A DNA stretch of 64,000 nucleotides from Parcubacteria group bacterium (GTDB lineage Bacteria; Patescibacteriota; Minisyncoccia; SW-4-49-11). Each line of letters begins with the position of its first letter. Positions within the stretch are counted from its first letter, which is position 1. The notes beneath the pieces are model-generated. The model saw nothing but the letters and a program-made list of their open reading frames with translations. It was not told the origin of the DNA and searched no databases. The stretch is from NCBI GenBank assembly GCA_943354045.1, contig CALRBF010000001.1:4046-68045 (forward strand), read 5' to 3'. Both the position numbers and the translations under genes were made by a program. Below are positions 2,573-57,603 of this stretch, piece by piece.

Positions 2573-2914
2573 TTATGAAACTGCCTCCTCTGCTTCTGGC
2601 AATATGTCTAATCTTCTCTCATCTATTTCTTCTCCCGTATGAATATCTCTTCCATATGTTCCTGCTTCAATTCTAGCTAAAGCTCTATCAATTTTTCCTA
2701 ATGTCTCTTCTAGAGTTCCCTCTACAAGCAGATCTCGCTCATAATTAACTTGTTCTTGAGCATTATCTTCTTCATCCTCGCTGATATTCTGATATTTAAC
2801 TTCATACCCAGACCCTATACTGTCTTTAGTTGCTACAGAATCAAGCTCTGAGATAATTCTTTGTCTTTTTTCAAGAAGTCTATTACGATAGATTTCTAAT
2901 TTTACTGAATCCAT
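2573..2914 (-). CDS. DksA/TraR-family protein lacking the C4 zinc-finger cysteines
   Basis: 113 aa. A coiled-coil is followed by 'ALARIEAGTYGRDIHTGEEIDERRLDILPEA', which is a DksA/TraR C-terminal motif with the Cys residues replaced. Confidence 0.55.
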   Translation of the reverse strand: MDSVKLEIYRNRLLEKRQRIISELDSVATKDSIGSGYEVKYQNISEDEEDNAQEQVNYERDLLVEGTLEETLGKIDRALARIEAGTYGRDIHTGEEIDERRLDILPEAEEAVS

Positions 2915-2951
2915 ATATGTATACTAATTTTATACTTACTATTATAGTATA

Positions 2952-3716
2952 TTATACTAGAGAAGTAAATACAAGTAATCCCAATAATATACTAATTAAT
3001 ACTATTCTAGCTAATATTTTTTTAGTATTTAATGTTCTCAAATAAATATCCCGAAATATGGATAGAGAGAATATCAAAAAAGTAGTTAATATAATTGATT
3101 GAGTAAGATGTGTTAATGGCAAAACTCTAAGCCCAATGAATAGCTCAACAATTATTATAGAGAGTATTAATGACATAATACGATAAAACACACGATCAAC
3201 CCCATACATCCATAAAATATATAATGAAATATTGAGTGTAGAAATAAAAGCAAGAATACCAAGTATGATTGGTGATATTGTTCCAATAAATATAGACCCA
3301 AACAAAAAGGCATAAGTGGAAAAGGATACAAATATACTTCCAGATATAATAATTTGGCGCATAAATTCTGAATTGCGATATTCTTTATGAGAAATAATAT
3401 CTTGTACAAAGAATAATCCCAATCCTAAAGCAATTACAATAACAGCAATGGGTACGGTATTCCCTTTTATAACTTGCATAAATAGAATCGATGCGAGAAT
3501 AAAATGCAAAGGAATTTGATAAGACCTTATTCTGTACCGATATAAAAAGACTAAGTATGCGATTAATCCACATAATCCTAATATTCCAAATGAACTCAAT
3601 AGAGGCTGTATCTTTTGAATTGTATAAAGATAAGCGGGAAAAAATCCAATGAGCAATATAATATTCCAAAAATTTTTCTGGAATATTATTTGTTGTAACC
3701 ATTTCACATACTGCAT
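2952..3716 (-). CDS. Polytopic integral membrane protein (~8 TM), function unknown
   Basis: 254 aa. The hydrophobic segments are spaced like a multi-TM protein. It is the last membrane gene of the 2573-9337 operon. Confidence 0.55.
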   Translation of the reverse strand: MQYVKWLQQIIFQKNFWNIILLIGFFPAYLYTIQKIQPLLSSFGILGLCGLIAYLVFLYRYRIRSYQIPLHFILASILFMQVIKGNTVPIAVIVIALGLGLFFVQDIISHKEYRNSEFMRQIIISGSIFVSFSTYAFLFGSIFIGTISPIILGILAFISTLNISLYILWMYGVDRVFYRIMSLILSIIIVELFIGLRVLPLTHLTQSIILTTFLIFSLSIFRDIYLRTLNTKKILARIVLISILLGLLVFTSLV

Positions 3717-3719
3717 ATA

Positions 3720-5621
3720 TTATCTCCGAAACTTGATTGATCTTCCTTGTGGTATATTATTTTTTGTAGGTTCTTTAGGTACCATGAGATTTGACTTTAC
3801 TTCAGATAATAATTCATCTAAAAGTCCATCTACACTTAATTTTTCTTCTTGGCTTGAGACATGTAAATCTTTTAGGAATTTTTCTTTAATTAAATATTCT
3901 GATTCTCCATAAGCGGAAGTCGATCTACTGAATACCTCTTTTAATTTTTTTGCCATTATGGGATTTACATATTCGACTGGATCAGAAGGAGGAATATCTT
4001 GCTTCACTTCTGGAATAACTTCTTTTTTTTTCTCCTCTACTTGTGTGGCAGTATCAGCAAGTTGGGTGGATATAGGAGGAATAATCTCCTCCTTAGGGAT
4101 AGGATGATTTTCTATTTTCTCATCTATTTTGGGAGTCGTATCTATAGGCTGTAATGGTAGTATAGGAGTGATATCAGTCGCATCTTTAGGTATAGGATTT
4201 TCTTGCTCTGATTTTGGATAAACTATAGGATTAGGTTTATTTGATGCATTATATGACTTTGATTTATCATTATAAGGTCTGGATTTATTATCTCTGTCTG
4301 ATGAGGCTTTTGCTTGGGGCTCTGGAGATTTTTTAATGTCTGTATTCTCAATATGCGCTCCTCTCAGCGAAGATTTAGCATTTCCATATGTTTGACGAGA
4401 GAATTCAATAATTTTATCCCTATTGGATATCAACTCTGGCTCTGGATCAGGAAGTGTATCCGCACTAAAAGGCTGACTGGTAACTCCATCTATCATAAGT
4501 TTCAAATATATTCTCCATTTTGGAAGATTAACTAAATCTTCAATAGTAAGCACTGGAGTAAATTCTCTTTCCATAAATTCAGCATCAGCTGCTCCAATTC
4601 TAAATACAATAGTAGTACCAACATTTCCAAATACTGCACCTCTTACAATTTCAGATAATTGCTCTACATATTGATGGGCCAAAATAAGACTTAATCGATA
4701 TTTGCGAGCTTCTGATAATATTTCTGCAAAAGAATCAGTAGAAAAGTTTTGAAACTCATCGATATAGGCATAAAAATCTTCTCTTTGATTCTCTGGTATA
4801 TCCACACGACTCATAGCAGCTAATTGCATTTTGGTAATCATCATCGCTCCCAGTAATTGAGCTCCACCCTCCCCCACAGCACCCTTAGAAAGATTCATAA
4901 TCAAAATTTTCTTTTGATCCATAATTTCACGCAAATTAAAAGAAGATTTTGCCTGTCCAATAATATTACGTATCAGTGGAGACGATGTAAATTGACCTAC
5001 TTTATTTTGAATTGGTGAAATAGCCTCAACCAATAATTTGTCTGTATATCCATCAAATTCATTTAACCAAAATTGCTTTAATACAGGATCATGCATTTTA
5101 TATACAATATTAGCTCGGAAATTCTTATCTACCAGAATACGCATAATATCAAGCAAAGTACTTTCTTCATTTTCAAGCAAAGTCAATATGGTATTGCGAA
5201 GTATATATTCAAGTCTTGGCCCCCAAGAATCCGCCCAAATTTTCTTAAATACTCCCACCAAACCATCGGATACAATATGCCTTTGATTTTCTGGCACATC
5301 ACCAAGTACATTAAAGGCAATAGGAAATTCTAAATCTTGTGGATTAAAATACACTACATCTTTTATACGATGTTCTGGAATATAATCAAGTAAGGCATCC
5401 GCCACATCTCCATGGGGATCAACAAAAGCAAGTCCTGATCCATTTCTAATATCAGACACCGCCATATTCAATAGAAGAGAGGTTTTACCCATACCTGTTT
5501 TTCCAATAATATGCATATGTCGACGCCTATCATCTCGCTTAATACCAAAAAGTCTTCCCTGACCATGAAAATTAGTCTTAGCAACAATGGTAATATCTTT
5601 ATTTGTTTGATTTTCACTCAT
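3720..5621 (-). CDS. TraD/TraG/VirD4-like (type IV coupling-protein family) P-loop ATPase, with no N-terminal membrane anchor and a C-terminal K/P/E-rich low-complexity tail
   Basis: Walker A 'IIGKTGMGKTS' at residue ~41. Coupling-protein signature 'VDPHGD'. Walker B-like 'YIDEFQNF'. 'LILAHQYVEQL' resembles the TraG-D_C region. The last ~230 aa are a disordered, Pro/Lys-rich tail. Confidence 0.7.
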   Translation of the reverse strand: MSENQTNKDITIVAKTNFHGQGRLFGIKRDDRRRHMHIIGKTGMGKTSLLLNMAVSDIRNGSGLAFVDPHGDVADALLDYIPEHRIKDVVYFNPQDLEFPIAFNVLGDVPENQRHIVSDGLVGVFKKIWADSWGPRLEYILRNTILTLLENEESTLLDIMRILVDKNFRANIVYKMHDPVLKQFWLNEFDGYTDKLLVEAISPIQNKVGQFTSSPLIRNIIGQAKSSFNLREIMDQKKILIMNLSKGAVGEGGAQLLGAMMITKMQLAAMSRVDIPENQREDFYAYIDEFQNFSTDSFAEILSEARKYRLSLILAHQYVEQLSEIVRGAVFGNVGTTIVFRIGAADAEFMEREFTPVLTIEDLVNLPKWRIYLKLMIDGVTSQPFSADTLPDPEPELISNRDKIIEFSRQTYGNAKSSLRGAHIENTDIKKSPEPQAKASSDRDNKSRPYNDKSKSYNASNKPNPIVYPKSEQENPIPKDATDITPILPLQPIDTTPKIDEKIENHPIPKEEIIPPISTQLADTATQVEEKKKEVIPEVKQDIPPSDPVEYVNPIMAKKLKEVFSRSTSAYGESEYLIKEKFLKDLHVSSQEEKLSVDGLLDELLSEVKSNLMVPKEPTKNNIPQGRSIKFRR

Positions 5622-6966: not shown

Positions 6967-8109
6967 TTATAAAGTTGTCTTTTCTAATAAATCGGTAAGC
7001 CTCGTATTAAGCTCTTTACCTGCAGTATGTATATCCTTGTCTGAGGCATAACTATATACCAAAACTCCTTCATCATATTCACCATCCAAATCTGAAAGAA
7101 AATGAGCCATATCAAATTTAGAAAAATCTAAATATCCTTGTTTGGTACTATTCCCATTATCAAGCAAAATATGTAATCCCAAGTTGTCACTTGGTAAATA
7201 GGACAATATTGTTCGATATATCAGAGGTATATCCTTAGCCTTGGTATGAGTTTTAGAAAAATCATGGGGAAAAAGCTTAGAATACGCATAACGATGTTTC
7301 ACTCCTTGAATAGTGATTTCTATCCATTCTAAATGAGCTAGAATACGGCCAATAAGTAATCTCTGACTATCTGTAATAAGACTATTAAGAGCATTATCAA
7401 TAGCGGTATAATCAACTCCTAATTCTCTCATCTCAATAATTGCTTTGTCTACTGCTAATGTACGAGATGATAATAATAAAGAGAATAACAGGGCATTACA
7501 AATATTTTCATTCCAAGCATTGGGATAATACGTTTTAATATAGTCAATAATAATCTCAGCATTAGAATTATAGGCTGAATTATATATTGTTTTTTCAGAA
7601 TAAGGATGCTTTATATCAAAGGCTGATATAGCAAGAGAAGGTGTATCAATCAATATATGGGGATAATCTGTAAAATATTGTCCTAATTGAGTCCAGTTTT
7701 GTGTATCTAATGTTACTACCAAATCATAAGAATATTTGCCAGGAGTAATAGTAACTAATTCTGATTGGAATTTTTCTGAAGGTGAATTGAGATAAATCCT
7801 GAGCTCAGAATCTGTTCTATCATATTTGAGAGATTCAATAGGATATTTGGTAGTATCAATAGAAATTATTGACTCTACAGAACCTTGTAATATTGAAGTT
7901 ATCATAGAAGTATCAATCATAGTCAATACTTGCTGTATATGAGTATATGAGGATATAATACTTACTTGTTTTCCCTCAGATTGTAATAAAGAAGCTAAAG
8001 CTAGGGCTGATCCTAATATATGTATTCCATGAATTTCTGGAATTGGAATTACAATTGACTGAGCATTTTGTAATGTCTCATGCATTAATGTCAAATCTGA
8101 TACAGCCAT
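6967..8109 (-). CDS. DHH/DHHA1-like (NrnA/RecJ-fold) protein with degenerate catalytic motifs
   Basis: N-terminal 'SIVIPIPEIHGIHILGSALALASLL' aligns to DHH motif I-II but without the Asp/His residues. C-terminal 'DIHTAGKEL' resembles the DHHA1 GGGH..AAG motif. Confidence 0.4.
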   Translation of the reverse strand: MAVSDLTLMHETLQNAQSIVIPIPEIHGIHILGSALALASLLQSEGKQVSIISSYTHIQQVLTMIDTSMITSILQGSVESIISIDTTKYPIESLKYDRTDSELRIYLNSPSEKFQSELVTITPGKYSYDLVVTLDTQNWTQLGQYFTDYPHILIDTPSLAISAFDIKHPYSEKTIYNSAYNSNAEIIIDYIKTYYPNAWNENICNALLFSLLLSSRTLAVDKAIIEMRELGVDYTAIDNALNSLITDSQRLLIGRILAHLEWIEITIQGVKHRYAYSKLFPHDFSKTHTKAKDIPLIYRTILSYLPSDNLGLHILLDNGNSTKQGYLDFSKFDMAHFLSDLDGEYDEGVLVYSYASDKDIHTAGKELNTRLTDLLEKTTL

Positions 8110-8172
8110 ATACTACTTTTATATAGAGCATCATTATACCAAAATACTTATATATAGTCAAAAAATATTCTC

Positions 8173-8490
8173 CTAAGCTTGCCTTAATAAATCTTTTATC
8201 CCCTGTATAAATTCAGATAATTCTTTGTCTAGAATTACATTTTGTATATCGTTCTCTGAATCTAATGCAATTTTTATTATAGATTGATTATTAATAGTAA
8301 TATATATATACCGTTCTCTTACAAATAATGCACGAGGATATGAGATCAGAACAGGAATATAATTGTTTTCTGTATTTACAAAGTTAATGATAAAAGACCC
8401 ATATTGCAATAATTCTTGTGCAATAAATTCATAACTATCTATATGATTATAGGCTTCTCCATAGTGTGGTGAGAGATTTGCTGAATTCAT
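8173..8490 (-). CDS. Hypothetical protein
   Basis: 105-aa ORF packed tightly in the operon, with no recognisable motif. Confidence 0.45.
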   Translation of the reverse strand: MNSANLSPHYGEAYNHIDSYEFIAQELLQYGSFIINFVNTENNYIPVLISYPRALFVRERYIYITINNQSIIKIALDSENDIQNVILDKELSEFIQGIKDLLRQA

Positions 8491-11123: not shown

Positions 11124-12625
11124 TCTTGATATCCTAGCAAGGTTACTAATAATCTACTCACTGTAATAGCTGTGAATAAACTCATTCCAATCCCAATAAC
11201 AAGAGTAGTTCCAAATCCTCTCACTACTCCAGAAGCTAAATAAAATAAGATAAGAGCAGATATTAAGGTAGATATATGAGAATCTCGAATTGATTCCCAA
11301 GCTCGCTTAAATCCTTCTTTTGCACTTGCCTCAAAATCCCGCCCATTAGCGAGTTCCTCCTTCATACGCTCGAATATCAAGATATTACCATCCACTGCAA
11401 TGCCAATACTTACAATAAATCCGGTAATCCCCGCTATTGTCAAAGTAAATCCTAGTATATTAAATATGGCTAGCACCAATATAGCATATACTCCTAAAGC
11501 AATTACCGCAATCACCCCCAAACCTCGATAAAAGAGTATCATAAATATAGCAACAAATAATAATCCAAATCCTCCAGCTCTAATACTTTGATATAATGAC
11601 TCAGTACCGAGGCTTGCTTGTATAATTTGTTGTGAAGCAATGGTAATTGGTACAGGCAAGGCTCCTGAATTCAAATAATCAACCAATTCCTTGGCACCTT
11701 GAGCAGTAAAGTCTCCAGATATTGTTGCCTGTCCATTAGGTATTTCTTGATTAATTCGAGGAGCACTCACAACTTGACCATCTAGAACAATATAAAGAAT
11801 TTTTCCAATATTATCCCGGGTAAATTCAGCAAATTTCTTCTTCCCCTCATCATCAAATTTAATACCTACTTGTGGTTGTGCAGTTTGTGGATCAAAAATA
11901 ACTTGAGCATTATCAAGATTTTGTCCTGTTAATACTGGAGATCCGATAAAATCAAGATTTTTTAAATTTTCTAGATTCTCTAGATTACCGCTTTGTATCT
12001 GCTCTATAATTTTTTGCCTTTCTTCTGGGGGTCTTACTTTATCAAAAAACTCTAAAGTTGGAGTTTGTCCAATTTGCTTAATTGCTTGCTCTGGATCTTT
12101 AATCCCTGCAAGCTCTACTACTAATCGGGTTTTATCTCCTTGTTCAATATAAATACGTGGCTCACTGACTCCAAAAGAATCTACTCTTTGGGTTACAACT
12201 TTTTGTAAACTCTCTAAGGCTTGTTTTTGATCAGGTCCCGCTATCTCTTTTAAATCAACATCATATACCACTCTTACTCCCCCCTGTAAGTCGAGACCTA
12301 GTATAAAGGTATTATTTGGTAATGGTGGAATATCTCTTTGAGATAGCCATTGATCAAATCCTCGAGACTTAAATGGTAAGTTTCCCCATTGAGATACCTT
12401 GTCTGAAGCTTTATTAATCCCATCAACAACCTTATTAATTGGCTGTGGATAAATATAAAATAATGCAAATAATGTTAATATAAGAACTCCAATTGATTGT
12501 CTTATGACATTTCCTTTTTTGGTTTTCCCTTTAATACAATACCAAATAAATCGTCCTATTTTATCAAATGGGTACCAAATTATTTTGAGTATATTCCCTG
12601 GTAGTCGTTTCAGCCAATTCAGCAT
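11075..12625 (-). CDS. secD: Protein-export membrane protein SecD
   Basis: 516 aa. Large periplasmic domain plus a C-terminal RND-like TM bundle ('GLGVIAVIALGVYAILVLAIF...'). Confidence 0.8.
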   Translation of the reverse strand: MLNWLKRLPGNILKIIWYPFDKIGRFIWYCIKGKTKKGNVIRQSIGVLILTLFALFYIYPQPINKVVDGINKASDKVSQWGNLPFKSRGFDQWLSQRDIPPLPNNTFILGLDLQGGVRVVYDVDLKEIAGPDQKQALESLQKVVTQRVDSFGVSEPRIYIEQGDKTRLVVELAGIKDPEQAIKQIGQTPTLEFFDKVRPPEERQKIIEQIQSGNLENLENLKNLDFIGSPVLTGQNLDNAQVIFDPQTAQPQVGIKFDDEGKKKFAEFTRDNIGKILYIVLDGQVVSAPRINQEIPNGQATISGDFTAQGAKELVDYLNSGALPVPITIASQQIIQASLGTESLYQSIRAGGFGLLFVAIFMILFYRGLGVIAVIALGVYAILVLAIFNILGFTLTIAGITGFIVSIGIAVDGNILIFERMKEELANGRDFEASAKEGFKRAWESIRDSHISTLISALILFYLASGVVRGFGTTLVIGIGMSLFTAITVSRLLVTLLGYQEWLLKTKFGRFITLQK

Positions 12626-26622: not shown

Positions 26623-26670
26623 ATAATTTGTTATTAGTTGGCTTTATCATTCTCTCGCTTCGCTGTTCGA

Positions 26671-26770
26671 ATGCAGGGACGTCGAGTTTCTAACTCTCCC
26701 CAAAACCCCTCGGTTTTGGTATTTCCGCCACGGGAAACTTTCGTTTCCCGACCCCTTCCTGTCCCTGCAT
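26671..26770 (-). ncRNA. Structured ~100-nt element closed by an 8-bp stem, ending in a second copy of the tRNA-Gln 3' end. Candidate ncRNA or att-site scar.
   Basis: The closing stem is GCAGGGAC/GTCCCTGC. Inside are the hairpins 'GGGAAAC-GAAA-GTTTCCC' (a GNRA loop), 'CCAAAACC-GAGG-GGTTTTGG' and 'GAGTT-AGA-AACTC'. The 19-nt sequence 'GTCCCTGCATTCGAACAGC' at 26662-26680 repeats the tRNA 3' end at 26807-26825. Confidence 0.3.
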
Positions 26771-26810
26771 TTTTAAAGAAAACTAATTGTTTAAATGCAG
26801 AGACTTGCTG

Positions 26811-26881
26811 TTCGAATGCAGGGACTCGAACCCCAATTGCTGGTGCCAGAAACCAGTGTCCTACCGTTAGACGACATTCGA
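26811..26881 (-). tRNA. tRNA-Gln (anticodon CUG)
   Basis: Folded by hand as a cloverleaf. Acceptor TCGAATG/CATTCGA. D-stem GTCT/GGAC. Anticodon stem CTGGT/ACCAG with loop TTCTGGC. T-loop TTCGAGT. The 3' CCA is not encoded. Confidence 0.65.
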
Positions 26882-26934: not shown

Positions 26935-27753
26935 CTATTTAGCTTTTTTACTCGTTTTTGTTTTGGACTTAGTCTGAGATTTTTTGGGTTTTATTAATGT
27001 TTGTCCAATGGTAAGAGTATACGGAGCATCTATATCATTTGATTTAGCAAGTTCTTTCCAACTCACATCAAAAGATTCAGCCACTGTTTCTATTGTATCT
27101 CCAACTTGCACAATATAATCATTTTCTGTACTTTCTTTAGATGGAATATGTAGGACTTGCCCTGCTACAAGAGTATATGGGGCAAATATATTGTTAGCTT
27201 TAGCAAGAGTCTTCCAATCTAATCCTAATTGCTTTGCAATAGTATCAATAGTATCACCTACTGACACCATATATTCAGAATTAGATATAATATGAGTACT
27301 ATTATCTAAATTAAGATGCAAATCAAAAGCAATAGACTCAATAGATGACCCTGATATAGTAGTTACTGATACTTCATTTGGCTGTGCCTGATCTATTGAT
27401 TGTGTAGAATTTTGTGTATGAGTCAATGGAGCTGGAATAATAGTAATTCTCGGCTCTACTAGTGAATCCGGATGAACAAGATGTCCTGGGAATACCTTTA
27501 TTTTTTGCCCAGATTCCACTGAATATGGAGCTTTTATTTTATTCACTCGAGCCATAATTTTCCATGGAAGTCCTAATTTCTCAGATATACTTTCTAAATC
27601 CTCATCCTCACCTACAATATATTCCTCAGTCCATAGACGACGATATCTATATCTCAATAATACTCGTAAAAATACAAATAACCCAAAAACAATCAAAAGG
27701 GCAATGAGAATGACTAGCTGTATATTGGTATCTATATCTGTATAATATATCAT
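26935..27753 (-). CDS. LysM-repeat peptidoglycan-binding protein (three LysM domains, N-terminal TM)
   Basis: Three copies of the 'GDTI..IA...G..W..LA..N.I..PY.L..GQ.L.IP' LysM consensus. Confidence 0.8.
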   Translation of the reverse strand: MIYYTDIDTNIQLVILIALLIVFGLFVFLRVLLRYRYRRLWTEEYIVGEDEDLESISEKLGLPWKIMARVNKIKAPYSVESGQKIKVFPGHLVHPDSLVEPRITIIPAPLTHTQNSTQSIDQAQPNEVSVTTISGSSIESIAFDLHLNLDNSTHIISNSEYMVSVGDTIDTIAKQLGLDWKTLAKANNIFAPYTLVAGQVLHIPSKESTENDYIVQVGDTIETVAESFDVSWKELAKSNDIDAPYTLTIGQTLIKPKKSQTKSKTKTSKKAK

Positions 27754-28054
27754 ATGTTATTTTCATTCATTATATCATATTTCAATCTACTCTATATAAG
27801 TTATCCACAATAATACTGTTTATTGGTTCAAAAATTGAGGCTGATAATATTCCCCTCTCCACCTACGGTTTACCTACCGTAGGTAGGTCGATAAATTGAG
27901 GACTTTTGTCCCTCCTATATTTATTTAGGAGGTGGGTGCCATCGATAGACGGTGGGGTGAAAAAAATGCAAGATTGAAGGCTATCCTCCTCCGCCCTACG
28001 GGCAAGTCCCCAAGGGAGGACAGTATTTTCAGGGAGATATTATGTTCTTATATA

Positions 28055-28083
28055 TTGACATTTTTACTATTTTATGCTATAAT
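28055..28083 (+). promoter_or_regulatory. Near-consensus sigma-70 promoter (TTGACA-17 nt-TATAAT) driving the GC-rich small ORF
   Basis: 'atattgacatttttactattttatgctataattat'. Followed by RBS GAGGAG at 28097-28102 and ATG at 28110. Confidence 0.5.
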
Positions 28084-28109
28084 TATAACTCAAATTGAGG
28101 AGACTCAAA

Positions 28110-28427
28110 ATGCGTACAGAAGAACCCGTCGGTAATTTGGATGGCATATCCGAAGAACCATTGGGTAATCTTGATCCCAGAGCAAGTCTGCACGAAAACC
28201 TAAGAACGGTTCTCGAACAAGGCCCTTGCACACCATATGCCCTGGTCAAGAACCTCACCTACCAGCCTGGATTCCCCGATTTTGCACAAACCCGAGCATG
28301 GTTGTCACAATTTCTGGGAATTAAGATCCCAAACGACGAGACAGGTATTGTCGTTCTGGTCGGCGACGTCGTTCAGGTGGCAACAGAGACTCGGGACATT
28401 TTCCTTCGGGATCGTCCATATGAGTAG
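28110..28427 (+). CDS. Hypothetical 105-aa protein encoded in a ~50% GC island
   Basis: 'MRTEEPVGNLDGISEEPLGNLD...'. RBS GAGGAG is 7 nt upstream. A perfect promoter lies upstream and a hairpin plus T8 terminator downstream. GC is far above the ~31% background. Confidence 0.55.
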   Translation: MRTEEPVGNLDGISEEPLGNLDPRASLHENLRTVLEQGPCTPYALVKNLTYQPGFPDFAQTRAWLSQFLGIKIPNDETGIVVLVGDVVQVATETRDIFLRDRPYE

Positions 28428-28453
28428 AAAGTCTACACCCAACCACAACCCTA

Positions 28454-28484
28454 CCCCAGTCAGCAATGGCTGGGATTTTTTTTA
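28454..28484 (+). terminator. Rho-independent terminator of the GC-rich ORF
   Basis: 'ccccagtcagcaatggctggg' forms a 7-bp GC stem, followed by 'atttttttt'. Confidence 0.5.
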
Positions 28485-28496
28485 TAAAACAAAAAA

Positions 28497-28615
28497 GTCC
28501 TTGCAATGATCTACTTTCCCCACGAGGAGTATCATCGACTCACAGAGGCTTAACTTCTAGGTTCGGAATGTAACTAGGTGTACCCCTCTGTGATAAATCA
28601 CAAGGACATTTTTGT
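28497..28615 (-). rRNA. rrf: 5S ribosomal RNA
   Basis: The reverse complement aligns to bacterial 5S ('...CCCCAC..CATCG...ACTTCTAGGTTCGGAATG..ACTAGGTG..ACC...'). It is ~105 nt downstream of the 23S 3' end. Confidence 0.7.
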
Positions 28616-28836
28616 TCTCGAACATAAGATTATCTAAAAAAGATAATCTTATGCTCCAGAATTGTTGTAAATTTAGGTAAAGCAACACTACATAACCTTG
28701 AGTATCAATCAAAAGTTAAAAAGATGAGTTTTAGCGACATTAGTATCACTCGACTGAACACATTACTATGCTTACATCTGTGACCTATCAACGTGGTAGT
28801 CTTCCACGGTCGCATGAGCTACCTAATCTTGAGTAC

Positions 28837-28869
<33 letters not shown>

Positions 28870-29056
28870 AGACCAAACTTAGCTACCCAACAGTGCCATT
28901 GGTATGACAGCTGGTACACCAGAGGTTTGTTCATCCCGGTCCTCTCGTACTAGGGACAAATTCTCTCAAGTAGCAACGCCTACAGAAGATAGAGACCAAC
29001 CTGTCTCACGACGGTTTGAACCCAGCTCGCGTGCCCCTTTAATTGGCGAACAGCCA

Positions 29057-29087
<31 letters not shown>

Positions 29088-30045
29088 GGACGAGCCGACA
29101 TCGAGGTGCCGAACCTGGCCGTCGCTATGGACGCTTGGGCCAGACTAGCCTGTTATCCCCGGGGTAACTTTTATCTGCTGATCTTCCACCTTTCTACAAA
29201 GGATGGTCGGTTCACTAAGTTCCACTTTCGTGACTCAACTAAAGTACCCATTTCTAAAAGAAACACATACAATAGAGGTGTAATGAAAACCATTACAGCG
29301 CGACATACACGTCTTGCAGTAAAGCTAGCTTATGCCTTTGCACTATCTCCCGAATTTCCATATCGGGATAGCTAACCTTATAAACACCTCCGTTACTTTT
29401 TAGGAGGTGAGCGCCCCACTCAAACTACCCACCAGGCACTGTCTCTCATAGTATTAGTATGAGGTTAGTATTCTCATAAATCAAGGGTGGTATCTCACTG
29501 GCGACTCCTTCTTGTCTAGCGACAAGCTATCAAAGTCTCCCACCTATTCTGAACAAAATAAACAAAAATACAATACCAAGCTATAGTAAAGCTCCACGGG
29601 GTCTTCTCGTCTTTCTGTAGGTAAACGGCATCTTTACCGTTATTGCAATTTCACCGGGCAGTTGGTTGAGACAGTTTCCCAGTCGTTACTCCATTCAAGC
29701 GGGTCTGAATTTACCAGACAAGGAATTTCGCTACCTTAGGACGATTATAGTTATCGCCGACGTTCACTGGCGCTTCGGACAGTCAGCTTTCACTGCCATC
29801 GTTAACGTTCCAGCACTGGTCAGGAGTCACCCCCTATACTTCCTTCTTGTGAAGTTAGCAGAGAGCTGTGTTTTTGATAAACAGTCGCTGGGAATCTTTA
29901 GCTGCGGCCTATATTGCTATAGGCAGACCTTATCCCGAAGTTACGGTCGCTGTTTTGCCGAGTTCCTTAACCAACTTTCACCCGTTCACCTTGGTCTTCT
30001 CGACCTACCCACCTGTGTCGGTTTTCGGTACGGTCGACAATGGAT

Positions 30046-30130
30046 TCCCTCCCTAGTTTTATCTACAATAGACTTTTAGATTTTATAATATAAATATTAT
30101 TGTCTATATCTAAACAAAACTAGGGAGGGA
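30046..30130 (-). repeat. Perfect 15-bp stem with a ~55-nt AT-rich loop, inserted in 23S (expansion segment or IVS-like hairpin)
   Basis: 'tccctccctagtttt'...'aaaactagggaggga'. It replaces the E. coli sequence just 5' of 'CGTACCCCAAACCGACACAGGTGG'. Confidence 0.6.
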
Positions 30131-30624
30131 CATAGTGGCTTTTCTTGTCACCTTGGGTCTCTTATATTGAATTCTCTCGCGAGTCTTCTTTATGCGTTTT
30201 TCGGGCTTTAATGACTCCAAAGATTTGCCTCAGAGTCAGCTCTACAGAAACACATATGCCTCAATCCATTAAGACACATAAAATACCATGATGCGTCCCC
30301 ACATTTACAAGCCATTGCCGGTACAGGAATATTAACCTGTTGTCCATCGGCTACCTCCGTTTCCGAAGTTAACCTTAGGCCCGACTAACCCCCCGATGAT
30401 TATCATTGCGGAGGAATCCTTAGGATTTCGGTGGCTCAGAATTTAACTGAACTTGCGGTTACTTATTCCAACATTCTCACTTCCTTGCGCTCCACCAGCC
30501 CTCACGGGTCCAGCTTCAGTGCACAAGGAACGCTCTCCTACCATTATAATACTAATAAATTAATATATAATCCGTAATTTCGGTACTACACTTGAGCCCC
30601 GTTACATTTTCAGCGCATATTTTC

Positions 30625-30903
30625 CTATCCCTCCTCAGTTCTGGGATCGAGCAAGCTATTTTTAACTCGCTCCATCAACTGATATTTGGCACTCCCATGA
30701 GATTTTAGTCTCTTTTCTCTTATCAATGCATCTTTTTTGATTCGATACACTTCAAAGTATATGAGTGTCCATTGACCTTTATGTTTTTTCGTATACTTAC
30801 TCTGCCTAGAATTATGTTCTTCTAATCTTTTTTTGAGATCTTTAGTACTCCCTATATAGAGAGTATAATCTGTAGAGTTTTGAATAAGATATACTATATA
30901 CAT
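30625..30903 (-). CDS. Small GIY-YIG nuclease (YhbQ/UPF0213-like) encoded inside the 23S rRNA gene, in the same sense as the rRNA
   Basis: 'YIVYLIQNSTDYTLYIGSTKDLKKRLEEHN......KHKGQWTLIYFEVYRIKKDALIREKRLKS' matches the GIY-YIG / YhbQ pattern. The last codons and the stop codon lie within the inverted repeat. Confidence 0.8.
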   Translation of the reverse strand: MYIVYLIQNSTDYTLYIGSTKDLKKRLEEHNSRQSKYTKKHKGQWTLIYFEVYRIKKDALIREKRLKSHGSAKYQLMERVKNSLLDPRTEEG

Positions 30904-30937
30904 ATAGATTCATTATACCAGAACTGAGGAGGGAATA
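30626..30937 (-). mobile_element. Inverted-repeat-bounded insertion (IVS-like stem-loop) carrying the GIY-YIG ORF within a 23S helix
   Basis: Left arm 'tatccctcctcagttctgg' (30626-30644) pairs with right arm 'ccagaactgaggagggaata' (30918-30937), giving 19 bp with one bulge. The flanks resume conserved 23S sequence ('GTGCGTAATAGCTCAC' ... 'GCGCTGAAAATGTAACGGGGC'). Confidence 0.5.
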
Positions 30938-31557
30938 GAGTAGTGAGCTATTACGCACTCTTTAAAAGATGGCTGCTTCTAAGCCAACTTCCTACCTGTC
31001 TCAGAAAATACACAACTTTTCCCACTTAGTGTAGTTTAGGGACCTTAATTGACGGTCTGGGCTGTTTCCCTTTTGAACATGGAGCTTAGCCCCCACATTC
31101 TAACTGCTAATCTATAATCTACTGGTATTCGGAGTTTGGTTAGATTGGGTACCCGAAGGCCCCAGATCCATTCAGTGCTCTACCCCCAGTAGGGATCAAT
31201 TAACGCTAGCCTAAGAGCTATTTCGGAGAGAACCAGCTATTACCAAGCTCGATTGGAATTTCTCCTCTATTCACAGCTCATCACCTAGAATTGCACGACT
31301 AGTGTGTTCGGGCCTCCCTTTGATGTTACTCAAAGTTCACCCTGGCCATAAATAGCTCGCCTGGTTTCGGGTCTACTCCCATCAACAATTCGCCCGTTAA
31401 GACTCGATTTCTCTATGCCTCCGTCCTTTTGAGACTTAAGCTGCTGATGAGACGTAACTCGTTGGATCATTCTTCAATAGGCACGCCGTCACCCTTGCGG
31501 GCTCCGACTCCTTGTACGTAAATGGTTTCAGGTCTATTTCATTGTCCTCTCGGACTG

Positions 31558-31594
<37 letters not shown>

Positions 31595-32263
31595 ACATTA
31601 AGTAATATTTAGCCTTACCAGGTTAGTTCTGGTGGATTCAGACAGGGCTTTCTTTTCCCGTCCTACTCAGGAATAGAACCGATATATATACACTGTTTTC
31701 GATTACTCGGCTATCACGATCTATGGCTAAGCTTTCCAGCTTACTCATCTAACAATATATATATATCCTCCTCACGGAATGTTCTACCCTACAACCCCTC
31801 TAGACCGAAGTCTGAGGTTTGGGCTCCTTCCGTTTCGCTCGCCGCTACTAAGGAAATCACATTCGTTTTCTTTTCCTCCGGGTACTGAGATGTTTCACTT
31901 CCCCGAGTTCGCTCCCTAATAACTAGGATACTTGGGCATTACCCCAAGTGGGTTTCCCCATTCGGATATCTCCGGATCAAAGCCTGATTAGCGGCTCCCC
32001 GAAGCTTATCGCAGCTAGTCTACGTCCTTCTTCGCTTCTTAATGTCAAGGCATCCCCCATTTACGCTTACCAACTCATCTTTTTAAATTCTGATTTATAC
32101 TTTTGGTGAAAGTAGTAAAATTGCATTTACCTAAATTTACTTGTGAATGAACCCTCTTATAGAAACAGATGATAATATCTCAAAGGTTGAACTTTAAGAG
32201 GTCATCTCTGTCGCCATATTGCTCCGTAGGTGAGCTGAGTGTGAAGTTGCGAGTACGATATTT

Positions 32264-32402: not shown

Positions 32403-32432
32403 AAGAAAAAACCCACCGACGAATCGGTGGGT
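32403..32432 (-). terminator. Rho-independent terminator of the GC-rich secreted-protein gene
   Basis: Minus strand: 'aacccaccgattcgtcggtggg' then 'tttttt'. Confidence 0.6.
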
Positions 32433-32451
32433 TATAAAGGGACTGATTGAC

Positions 32452-33069
32452 TCAGCTGGTCTTGATGCCCTCAATGGCTTTGATCAGGAGCTGGACTTGA
32501 GGCCAAATATTTACCTGAAACCATCTCATCCACTGATCAAAGTTCCTCAACAGCTGTTTTGACTCCGAATCTAGAGTCGTCACCTGAGGTTGAGGAGCGG
32601 GTGGCAACACCACTGGCGGAGGGGCAGCTGGAGCAGATTGCTCCCCACCGATGGTAATCACCTGGTCGATACCGAGGTCACCAGAAGTGGTAAATCTCTT
32701 GTCCGCAATCCCACTGGTCAAGAGGTTGACACCCATGACCCGATAGGGTCCAGGCTCAACCCCATTCAGAGGGACTACCCACACTCCCTGCCGAATCGAC
32801 AGGCTTCCGGGAAGCCTCAAGAGATCGGGTCGAATAGAAAACGGAACTTCATCCTTAAGAACAAGAATGACATCGTGTGAGATGGGACAGGTATTACCCT
32901 GCTCTACCCGAATCAACACAGTGTTGTCCACCGTATTGTCGCTGACCGAAACCAGATACTCGCACGAGTCGATACGCGGATAAGGCGAATCTTGTGCCAG
33001 TACGGGCATCCCGACGAGGGACGCACCGATCATAGTGGAAGTGAAAAGCAACGATTTGAAAGCGGTCAT
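32452..33069 (-). CDS. Secreted hypothetical protein (Sec signal peptide, Pro-rich linker) encoded in a ~52% GC island
   Basis: 'MTAFKSLLFTSTMIGASLVGMPVLAQ|DSP...' is a signal peptide with an AxA-like cleavage site. A linker 'APAAPPPVVLPPAPQPQV' follows. Codon usage differs strongly from neighbouring genes. Confidence 0.6.
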   Translation of the reverse strand: MTAFKSLLFTSTMIGASLVGMPVLAQDSPYPRIDSCEYLVSVSDNTVDNTVLIRVEQGNTCPISHDVILVLKDEVPFSIRPDLLRLPGSLSIRQGVWVVPLNGVEPGPYRVMGVNLLTSGIADKRFTTSGDLGIDQVITIGGEQSAPAAPPPVVLPPAPQPQVTTLDSESKQLLRNFDQWMRWFQVNIWPQVQLLIKAIEGIKTS

Positions 33070-33151
33070 TGAAAAGGATCACATACGATATATATATACC
33101 ATAAAATAACAAAAATGTCAATAGTTATAGGCATTTATTTAAAACCGTTAT

Positions 33152-56800: not shown

Positions 56801-56910
56801 ATAATATATATTTAATTCTCTAGTAGTCTATATTGAATTATCTATTTCGTCAAATTATAAAGAAAAAAGCCCACCTCTGTGAAGAAGCGGACTCAAATAT
56901 AATTGAAGAG

Positions 56911-57528
56911 TCAGTTCGCAGCGCTGGAGCGCCGACGAACTTGACGACCAGGACGGATGATCTGGCGGGGGCGGGCAAACGCGGCCTCGGAAACCGGGAT
57001 CTTCTCAACCCATTTAGTACGGAGACGACCATCCTTGGTGAGGATGGCATCCATGGAGACGAAATCTCCCTTACTTAGGCGCGGAGCATCAATGAAGTCA
57101 ACGGTGACAAAGTGGTCACCAAAGACCTTGACAGAAACATTGCGACCATAATTATCGTCGCACCAAACCCTTTTACAAACCTCCCCACGAATGGAGAATT
57201 CCTCAGGTAGATCATCCTGAGCCCCAGAATTAGGGTCAAGAATGGAAGGTTTCCAGACCCCGATCACTTGGAGCTTGTTTACACGACCATCTTTGGTTTG
57301 TGGATAAACCACGAACATGGCGGAGTTCTCACCCTCCTTGAGAAGTTTAAGGACAAGTCCATGGACTTCTGCTTCAAGAGTAAGAGCTTTCACCCGGAAC
57401 TCACCCGTCAAGGTAATTACCCCGTTAGGGGCAATTACCCCCTTCAAGACTCCGATTGCTCGGGTTTGGAGGAGGTACTCGGGCTCCCCGATGGGGTGGA
57501 GGCGGGGCTGTTTTTGAACGATCGACAC
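56911..57528 (-). CDS. Hypothetical 205-aa protein encoded in a ~52% GC island (GTG start, RBS AGGAG)
   Basis: The base composition of 56900-57540 is far above the flanking ~30% GC. 'AGGAGATCCTACAGTG' supplies the RBS and start. No family recognised. Confidence 0.55.
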   Translation of the reverse strand: MSIVQKQPRLHPIGEPEYLLQTRAIGVLKGVIAPNGVITLTGEFRVKALTLEAEVHGLVLKLLKEGENSAMFVVYPQTKDGRVNKLQVIGVWKPSILDPNSGAQDDLPEEFSIRGEVCKRVWCDDNYGRNVSVKVFGDHFVTVDFIDAPRLSKGDFVSMDAILTKDGRLRTKWVEKIPVSEAAFARPRQIIRPGRQVRRRSSAAN

Positions 57529-57603
57529 TGTAGGATCTCCTACTAATGTTTACAATTCTATTTATATCACATTTTCACAATTTTGTCAATAACTATAATC
57601 ATT

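Follow-up and report, generated by a model that had tools for sequence, protein, structure and literature searches.

The segment at positions 28055-28484 of the 64,000-nucleotide stretch analysed here (the window) is best explained as a monocistronic accessory protein gene, not an RNA element, situated in a variable flank of the 23S-5S rRNA genes, a reading to which we assign a probability of about 0.7. Genomes of CPR/Patescibacteria are small, and no role has been assigned to most of the genes specific to their lineages. The gene described here falls in an ordinary category, that of accessory genes in hypervariable regions, and its product belongs to an unnamed, clade-restricted family of small proteins with some unusual traits.

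Layout, coding status and distribution of the cassette

The cassette is a monocistronic unit with its own promoter, ribosome-binding site, open reading frame (ORF) and terminator, and agrees both in its self-contained character and in the position of each element with the preliminary description of this locus. The promoter (TTGACAtttttactattttaTGcTATAAT; 28055-28083, forward strand) is of the sigma-70 type, with TTGACA and TATAAT hexamers that match at 12/12 positions across a 17-nt spacer and a TG preceding the -10 hexamer (extended -10). A 5' leader of ~20 nt carries the Shine-Dalgarno sequence GAGGAG (28097-28102, forward strand), 7 nt 5' of the ATG at 28110. The 105-amino-acid (aa) ORF (P0001; 28110-28427, forward strand), which encodes a small acidic protein with a predicted winged-helix-like core, is followed by an intrinsic terminator (28455-28484, forward strand) consisting of an 8-bp stem (28455-28474) with a 4-nt loop and a T8 run. 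Judged from sequence only, the 17-nt spacing, GC hairpin and T-run satisfy what is expected of a sigma-70-type promoter and an intrinsic terminator. The promoter is kept at all homologous loci of the 105-aa family, and TTGAGG is kept at the Shine-Dalgarno position in L001, L008, L013, L014 and L018; the terminator hairpin of the window recurs in L001 and L014, and a different hairpin plus T-run is found in L008, L013 and L018. Cassette and rRNA operon converge: the 5S rRNA gene (28498-28605) and the 23S rRNA gene (28720-32080) both lie on the reverse strand, with the end of the operon facing the cassette. The 5S gene is the constant neighbour of the 105-aa family, and in the window the cassette terminator ends 13 nt from its 3' end.

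Comparison of homologous loci indicates that 28110-28427 is a real protein-coding gene under purifying selection, because the frame is kept in six variants, substitutions are biased towards third codon positions and dN/dS is below 1. Six sequence-distinct versions (the window, L001, L008/L016, L013, L014/L015/L020 and L018/L019), all matched by a family HMM, have diverged to 36-100% aa identity and retain the reading frame, with indels of whole codons; the exception is L020, in which one in-frame TAA introduces a premature stop. The preliminary description had allowed that the ORF might show neither conservation nor a maintained frame at homologous loci, and both are seen here. Between the window and L001, whose protein is 80% identical, 51 nucleotide differences are distributed 11/10/30 over codon positions 1/2/3 and dN/dS is 0.22; across the six pairs whose dS could be estimated, dN/dS is 0.22-0.53.

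The 105-aa family is small, unnamed and, as far as found, restricted to Paceibacteria-type contigs. Three protein searches returned 2, 4 and 7 family proteins, distant members were added by an exhaustive HMMER scan and a profile search, and an 86-aa member in L018 was located through its promoter. No homologue placeable outside this clade was found among the 5.8 billion and 1.84 billion proteins covered, and no family members were found in the viral contigs searched. An identical or 80%-identical 105-aa protein is encoded on several metagenome contigs. The sole member from a taxonomically labelled genome comes from a Candidatus Paceibacteria MAG, and the remaining members are on unlabelled metagenome contigs that share the 5S end or synteny.

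Presence and absence in relatives, a comparison proposed in the preliminary description, mark the gene as accessory, since it is present in some relatives and absent from several. It ends a few tens of nucleotides from the 5S 3' end in the window, L001, L008, L011, L012 and L014. Among 11 metagenome loci with the same 5S 3' end, a family member lies <700 nt from the matched 5S-end sequence in L020 only; in L018 and L019 the member lies ~3.6 kb from 5S, beyond an inserted island, and at the other loci of this set the family is absent throughout the fetched sequence. Family-less loci hold other 5S-adjacent content, including unrelated minus-strand genes, a tyrosine recombinase (L024) and an unrelated GC-rich ORF (L025). 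No gene accompanies the family consistently as a partner, and neighbours differ among loci; for example, a divergent gene pair (a 189-aa gene and a transglutaminase-like gene) is present in L008, L014 and L020 and absent from the window, L001 and L018.

Alignment of these loci also indicates that the 105-aa gene diverges faster than its flanks. Between the window and L008 the 105-aa protein is 67% identical, compared with 82-98% for the proteins of flanking genes and ~99% nucleotide identity for the rRNA genes. L001 has the structure of a mosaic, with 100% identity to L008 between the -10 region and about codon 28 and once more in 5S. From codon ~30 through the terminator it is much closer to the window than to L008; the first ~100 nt of that segment are 83-90% identical to the window versus 63-70% to L008, and the margin further on is generally smaller. 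This mosaic identity, with dS between L001 and L008 rising from 0 in the N-terminal part to 1.05 in the body, shows at the alignment level that the gene body has been exchanged among relatives by homologous recombination.

The encoded protein and its promoter class

The 105-aa protein has a pI of 4.58, and all members of the family (86-115 aa) are acidic, with pI 4.6-4.8 and net charge -6 to -12; the folded core alone is also acidic. We note that an acidic pI does not exclude DNA binding. The family product has no signal peptide or membrane segment. Sequence searches of Pfam, NCBIfam, PHROG, PADLOC and the PDB with the 105-aa protein gave no meaningful match, and a PDB profile search gave weak matches to ACP (E = 0.017) and reached MarR at E = 1.1. 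With Rfam included, none of these databases contained a family match, which bears out the earlier statement that the protein belongs to no recognisable family.

The N terminus holds the internal duplication reported in the preliminary description, a tandem motif EEPVGNLD ... EEPLGNLD (28119-28175, forward strand; residues 4-11 and 15-22) that is predicted to be disordered. In family alignments, the EEPxGNLD repeat is carried by four members of one sub-branch and is absent from the L014 and L018 members. In the four members having it, the repeat has changed far less than other parts of the protein; when the window is compared with L013, codons 1-29 have a dN of 0.19 and the remaining codons one of 0.78.

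An AlphaFold2 model, based on a shallow family alignment of six distinct versions (seven database clusters, two of them fragments), predicts a core of three helices followed by three strands with pLDDT 80-90 and disorder in residues 1-21 (pLDDT <50). The top Foldseek matches in the PDB are almost all winged-helix proteins (ScpB, Fur, PadR/LmrR, MarR, BlaI, SelB and Z-alpha), all at E > 0.3 and TM 0.3-0.45. The predicted core therefore looks winged-helix-like, a resemblance that is statistically insignificant and so qualitative. As modelled, it shares with small winged-helix proteins (PadR/LmrR, MarR, BlaI/MecI, the ScpB N-domain and the Fur DNA-binding domain) the succession of three helices and a beta-hairpin or sheet. 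It differs from them in its acidity, in the extra disordered EEPxGNLD repeat and in the absence of any sequence or profile match and of a basic recognition helix. Assignment to the winged helix-turn-helix (wHTH) regulators by sequence finds no match in Pfam or NCBIfam and only the MarR match of the PDB profile search, and the basic recognition helix or wing of such regulators has no counterpart in this acidic protein, with no conserved K or R in helix 3 of the family alignment.

The cassette promoter has a sister in the window. A 29-nt string, TTGACATTTTTnnnATTTTATGnTATAAT, occurs twice in the window (0.00 expected by chance), and the sister promoter TTGACATTTTTGTTATTTTATGGTATATA (33093-33121, reverse strand), with 2 mismatches to the cassette promoter, precedes a 205-aa secreted-protein gene (32452-33069, reverse strand) just upstream of 23S. 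This gene has a signal-peptide-like N-terminus, 52% GC and a terminator at 32410-32433. In ~235 kb of fetched loci and four added loci, the 29-nt motif (allowing up to 3-5 mismatches) occurs only upstream of the 105-aa and secreted-protein families. The promoter spacer is T-rich, conserved across the 105-aa family and common to the secreted-protein gene. The secreted-protein family comprises at least 43 clusters, its source-named members are only Parcubacteria and Minisyncoccia MAGs, and no Pfam domain was detected in its members. In 4/4 further genomes the gene retains the promoter and occupies the same neighbourhood (SBP_bac_5, SecG and Phage_holin_4_2) near rRNA genes, and its GC content is 48-53% where that of the locus is 31-37%. 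The 105-aa family is absent from the fetched flanks of those four genomes (~8 kb either side; one side only for L030), and promoter conservation is therefore independent of the 105-aa protein.

The strong consensus promoter would drive constitutive, high-level production of a small cytoplasmic acidic protein. We tentatively suggest that this protein acts by binding a partner macromolecule, with protein favoured over DNA, although this is only one possibility and a somewhat doubtful one. The conserved N-terminal EEPxGNLD repeat would then be a docking motif and the variable core the specificity part, in an antagonist, immunity-like or adaptor role. The acidity of the family and the lack of a conserved basic recognition helix favour a protein partner, and the partner-binding view also draws on fast divergence with mosaic alleles and on a promoter that is independent of the protein. 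The immunity or antagonist reading is weakened by the lack of a consistently linked partner gene. Orphan immunity and inhibitor genes (barstar-like or colicin-immunity-like) are similar in being small, acidic, cytoplasmic, accessory, fast-diverging and mosaic, with their own strong promoter; here there is no consistently adjacent toxin gene, no immunity-family match in sequence or fold and no PADLOC match, so that the analogy is functional only. Membership of a toxin-immunity or defence system likewise finds no PADLOC match, and neighbours vary among loci.

The same observations bear on the main alternative, which we consider unlikely and in which the 105-aa protein is a classical winged-helix transcription factor that binds the T-rich spacer of both promoters and controls a two-gene regulon around the rRNA operon. 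The winged-helix-like predicted fold and the nearly identical 29-nt promoter, spacer included, before two genes are consistent with such a regulator, as is the arrangement in L008, L014 and L020, where the gene is divergent from another operon in a common regulator layout. However, the secreted-protein promoter is kept in four genomes with no family member found within ~8 kb, the members are acidic (pI 4.6-4.8, charge -6 to -12) with no conserved basic residues in helix 3, and no HTH family is matched by sequence.

GC content, the 5S rRNA 3' end and the upstream block

The 105-aa ORF has 50.0% GC and a GC3 of 0.47, compared with a mean of 34.4% (sd 4.9) and a GC3 of 0.24 in the 44 other window ORFs of at least 150 aa, and its GC1 and GC2 are shifted as well. 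The earlier estimate of about 50% for 28110-28427 was accurate, and the background of ~31% given with it was too low, the window overall having 34.5%. ORF GC is 46-54% in five of the six lineages and 40% in L014. The cassette promoter, ribosome-binding site and flanks are AT-rich and clade-typical. High GC is a conserved property of this promoter and gene class in the clade and is alone no sign of recent import; composition by itself is not evidence of recent foreign origin because the syntenic gene with the same promoter is equally GC-rich. The GC-richness might stem from codon selection linked to very high expression, from mRNA structure, or from GC-biased gene conversion at a recombination hot spot.

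The preliminary description took the cassette to be horizontally acquired, a claim that stands in part. Accessory distribution, an insertion hot spot and allele exchange among relatives agree with it; the lack of an extra-clade homologue, a promoter native to the clade and a GC-matched sister gene do not. In its strongest form, that the cassette was recently imported from a GC-richer donor outside the clade and that 50% GC is the un-ameliorated donor composition, we regard the claim as improbable. Such an import would account for the shift at all three codon positions (50% GC and GC3 0.47 versus 34% and 0.24, with GC1 and GC2 shifted), for location at an insertion hot spot and absence from several relatives, and it has a parallel in L025, where an unrelated ORF well above 50% GC occupies the same site. 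Against it, the 5.8 billion and 1.84 billion proteins hold no extra-clade homologue, the promoter, ribosome-binding site and flanks have the AT-rich composition of the clade, the family has diverged to 36% identity yet kept its position beside 5S, and the secreted-protein gene with the same promoter is equally GC-rich and syntenic in 4/4 further genomes.

From comparison of island boundaries, the 5S 3' end behaves like an attachment site, with the cassette just outside it, because direct repeats of the 5S end bracket islands in L018 and L020. The att-like segment is 32 nt long (28487-28518) and is made up of the final ~21 nt of 5S together with the adjoining T-run. In L018 a 3.6-kb restriction-modification island, located between the cassette and 5S, is flanked on both sides by an exact 32-nt direct repeat of this T-run and 5S end; in L020 a 2.3-kb island, likewise between cassette and 5S, lies within repeats of at least 38 nt; and in L024 an integrase (tyrosine recombinase) gene ends beside 5S. 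The att-like sequence occurs only once in the window, and no integrase Pfam match was found among the neighbours called within ~2.7 kb towards LysM and 10 kb towards the rRNA genes. Islands formed by tyrosine recombinases at tRNA or tmRNA 3' ends are similar in that blocks are bracketed by direct repeats including the 3' end of a small stable RNA and, as in L024, an integrase lies next to the RNA gene; here the target is the 5S rRNA 3' end, the cassette is outside the islands and no integrase is near it in the window. A strain-specific variable region adjoining rRNA genes is also found in SAR11, a streamlined aquatic bacterium, whose HVR2 spans 48 kb between 23S and 5S and holds mostly cell-surface biosynthesis genes (Wilhelm et al. 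2007, PMC2217521). Here, by comparison, one variable zone lies beyond the 5S 3' end and a second upstream of 23S, and they contain small single-gene units and short islands.

It is very unlikely that the gene is itself part of an integrative element whose attachment site is the 5S 3' end, in which it might serve as excisionase (recombination directionality factor) or element repressor. A small winged-helix-like protein adjoining an att-like site would suit such a role, as would the integrase beside 5S in L024 and the repeats of the 5S end around the L018 and L020 islands. Yet the cassette is outside the repeat-bounded islands in both of those loci, the window has a single att-like copy and no integrase called in the ~2.7-kb and 10-kb flanks, and the protein is acidic. 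Classification as an island-borne excisionase or repressor encounters the same single att-like copy and the same position outside the L018 and L020 islands.

One family member is on a 561-bp contig (L013) whose first and last 55 nt are identical, so that promoter, ORF and terminator make up a 506-bp unit, present as a tandem repeat or a circle. This unit, the compact single-ORF organization at a variable site and the AAATTGAGG-ending repeat that flanks the L018 unit recall integron gene cassettes. The cassette differs from these in having its own promoter and terminator, and the window lacks an IntI-type integrase and attI, nor is an attC demonstrated; its own consensus promoter and the lack of an integrase match among called neighbours place it outside the integron cassettes.

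The GC-rich block upstream of the cassette (27845-28035; 40-49% GC) is read from alignments as a non-conserved patch of dispersed repeats and deletion scars. Its first part is a dispersed-repeat copy (ATTCCCCTCTC..CCTACGG..TCGATAAATTGAGG; 27845-27901, forward strand) that is expanded by a palindrome at 27861-27884, lies outside the transcript and has 84% matches to L001 (1026-1080) and L008 (7791-7845); in L018, two shorter copies ending in TCGATAAATTGAGG flank the cassette at about 3350-3388 and 4126-4163. The remainder (27902-28035) is a GC-rich patch of scar fragments recognized by similarity to L008 and L018 segments. Within it, 27934-27999 is similar to the sequence just 5' of a DUF559 endonuclease gene that L008 has and L001 lacks (71% over 69 nt; L008 8435-8502), and 27984-28023 is a hairpin repeat found upstream of 23S in L018 (88% over 41 nt; 11337-11377, minus strand). 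The three copies of AAATTGAGG and the palindromes at 27861-27884 reported earlier are present. These copies (27832, 27893 and 28092) fall within 270 nt, and the 64-kb window holds 6 versus 1.44 expected by chance; two of the three mark the end of a repeat copy or a homology breakpoint, and the remaining one is the ribosome-binding region. The block aligns to L001 in patches only, with long indels between them. L008 and L014 lack it, their promoters being directly preceded by AT-rich DNA and a divergent gene.

Two roles had been proposed for this block. It cannot be a leader because it lies 5' of the promoter, outside the transcript. Nor is a conserved ncRNA supported, since the block consists of repeats and scars, is missing in L008 and L014, and has no Rfam match; its folding z-scores of -2.0 and -3.6 on the two strands are unremarkable for GC-rich palindromic sequence. 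At gathering threshold, Rfam matches in the whole window are limited to 23S, 5S and two tRNAs, and across 27700-28520, on both strands and including the block, no match has an E-value better than 1.7 and all fall far short of the gathering score. We accordingly regard it as exceedingly improbable that the GC-rich segment represents a structured ncRNA whose ORF is spurious, or that the block at 27849-28030 is an independent ncRNA or riboswitch. In favour of an RNA are the elevated GC, which structured RNAs typically show in AT-rich genomes, folding z-scores of -2.65 (ORF region) and of -2.0 and -3.55 (the block, one value per strand), and one compensatory change in a hairpin inside codons 9-16. 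Against it stand the three-base periodicity of substitutions, a dN/dS below 1, a frame kept across six variants, the lack of any Rfam match with an E-value below 1.7, and a block that is missing from L008 and L014 and riddled with indels relative to L001.

Biological meaning

A more speculative proposal, for which we hold out little expectation, casts the 105-aa and secreted 205-aa genes as the two halves of an interaction module, specific to the clade and co-expressed, in episymbiotic Paceibacteria, combining a docking repeat, a hypervariable domain and a 506-bp mobile or amplifiable unit. Both genes would use the same unusual promoter, be kept GC-rich and diversify rapidly via allele exchange. 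The 105-aa protein would be a modular effector or antagonist, and the unit would move or amplify as the 506-bp cassette seen in L013 at a recombination hot spot linked to 5S rRNA.

Read as an accessory protein gene, the cassette changes no major concept; it is a curiosity of one lineage and does not represent a new kind of genetic system. It offers a clean case of a small orphan gene that can be demonstrated to be real through sequence comparison alone, and it documents allele exchange inside a 300-bp gene between close relatives and a 5S rRNA 3' end that behaves like an island insertion site. The occurrence of two fast-evolving, GC-rich families that share a promoter in genomes of 31-37% GC calls for caution over GC content as evidence of recent transfer in these organisms. 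The two families may also supply candidate highly expressed, rapidly diversifying proteins for studying how episymbionts interact with hosts, phages and competitors.

Additional GC-rich expression units

The GC-rich gene for the 105-amino-acid (aa) acidic protein (window 28110-28427) is accompanied by other units that carry their own expression signals. A second self-contained GC-rich unit, consisting of a promoter, a 205-aa ORF and its own terminator, is encoded on the minus strand at 32410-33121, immediately upstream of the 23S rRNA gene (52% GC, GC3 = 0.58). Its promoter is near-identical to the 28055-28083 promoter of the 105-aa gene, and its product has a signal-peptide-like N-terminus and contains a proline-rich linker. 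The family of this 205-aa protein comprises at least 43 clusters, its named members derive only from Parcubacteria/Minisyncoccia metagenome-assembled genomes, and no Pfam domain was detected in it. The protein itself retains only 43% identity between genomes that are 82-98% identical in the genes flanking it.

A third GC-rich unit, monocistronic and also on the minus strand, lies at 56867-57590 (53% GC, GC3 = 0.54). It encodes a TTGACA-17-TATAAA promoter with TG, an AGGAG ribosome-binding site, a GTG start codon and a terminator with a 12-bp stem. The product, a basic protein of 205 aa with a pI of 9.5, matches no family. Its ORF is unrelated to those of the other two GC-rich units, and its promoter spacer is unlike theirs.

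Variation in the 105-aa family

Homologues of the 105-aa protein differ in organization and integrity among the fetched relative and metagenome loci. In contig L013 (1-561), the opening and closing 55 nt are identical, defining a 506-bp unit with no content beyond the promoter, the terminator and the ORF of a 115-aa family member. The unit is either tandemly arrayed or a small circle. The member in L020 (~2767-3159, minus strand) is 99% identical to the database protein P0007 and has an in-frame TAA after ‘...HALE’, where L014 has TCA at the same codon; it is either a pseudogene or the result of an error in sequencing. Two database fragments, P0005 and P0008, belong to related members from the same sub-branch as P0007 and the L020 member and correspond to partial or shorter calls. 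Codons 9-16 of the window gene contain a hairpin, UUUGGAU-GGCAU-AUCCGAA (28134-28157), with a closing pair that changes from U-A in the window to C-G in L001 and L008 (GAT>GAC, ATA>ATG). As a single event, this compensatory change is weak evidence that the conserved N-terminal region is constrained at the RNA level.

Gene content beside the 105-aa gene

The family gene is divergent, in three lineages, from a conserved gene pair (L008 8733-9811, L014 439-1517 and L020 3239-3811), whose products are a transglutaminase-core-like protein of ~170 aa and a ~190-aa protein that matches no family. The window, L001 and L018 lack this pair and have the GC-rich repeat block (27845-28035 in the window) in its position. 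L008 also encodes a DUF559 (Vsr-like endonuclease) gene that, together with its flanks (7875-8456), is precisely missing at ~1105 of L001, a locus otherwise 97-100% identical to L008. GGTGGA is present at both junctions. This pattern resembles that of a small mobile endonuclease gene whose presence in the GC-rich repeat block is polymorphic.

Insertions and direct repeats at structural RNA genes

The window 23S rRNA gene (28720-32080, minus strand) is 3,361 nt long, compared with 2,925 nt for the Rfam model, and therefore carries insertions. An AT-rich insertion encodes a 92-aa GIY-YIG endonuclease (30625-30903, minus strand; Pfam E = 5.6e-17), and no group I intron model matched at the gathering threshold. 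Gene length also varies among relatives, with 3,293 nt in L008 and 3,008 nt in L018.

We note that, within 26655-26881 (minus strand), the 3' end of tRNA-Gln(CTG), gtccctgcattcgaacagc, recurs ~145 nt downstream, and that the repeats flank a ~125-nt GC-rich segment containing a hairpin. This segment looks like a small-element footprint or an island remnant, inserted at the tRNA 3' end.

Exact direct repeats of the 5S rRNA gene 3' end plus T-run flank a 3.6-kb restriction-modification island in L018 (4208-4239 and 7826-7857) and a 2.3-kb island encoding a ricin-lectin protein in L020 (363-400 and 2670-2707). In L024, a phage-integrase-family gene terminates ~30 nt from the 5S gene. The 5S rRNA gene 3' end and its T-run, at 28487-28518 in the window, act like an attachment site.
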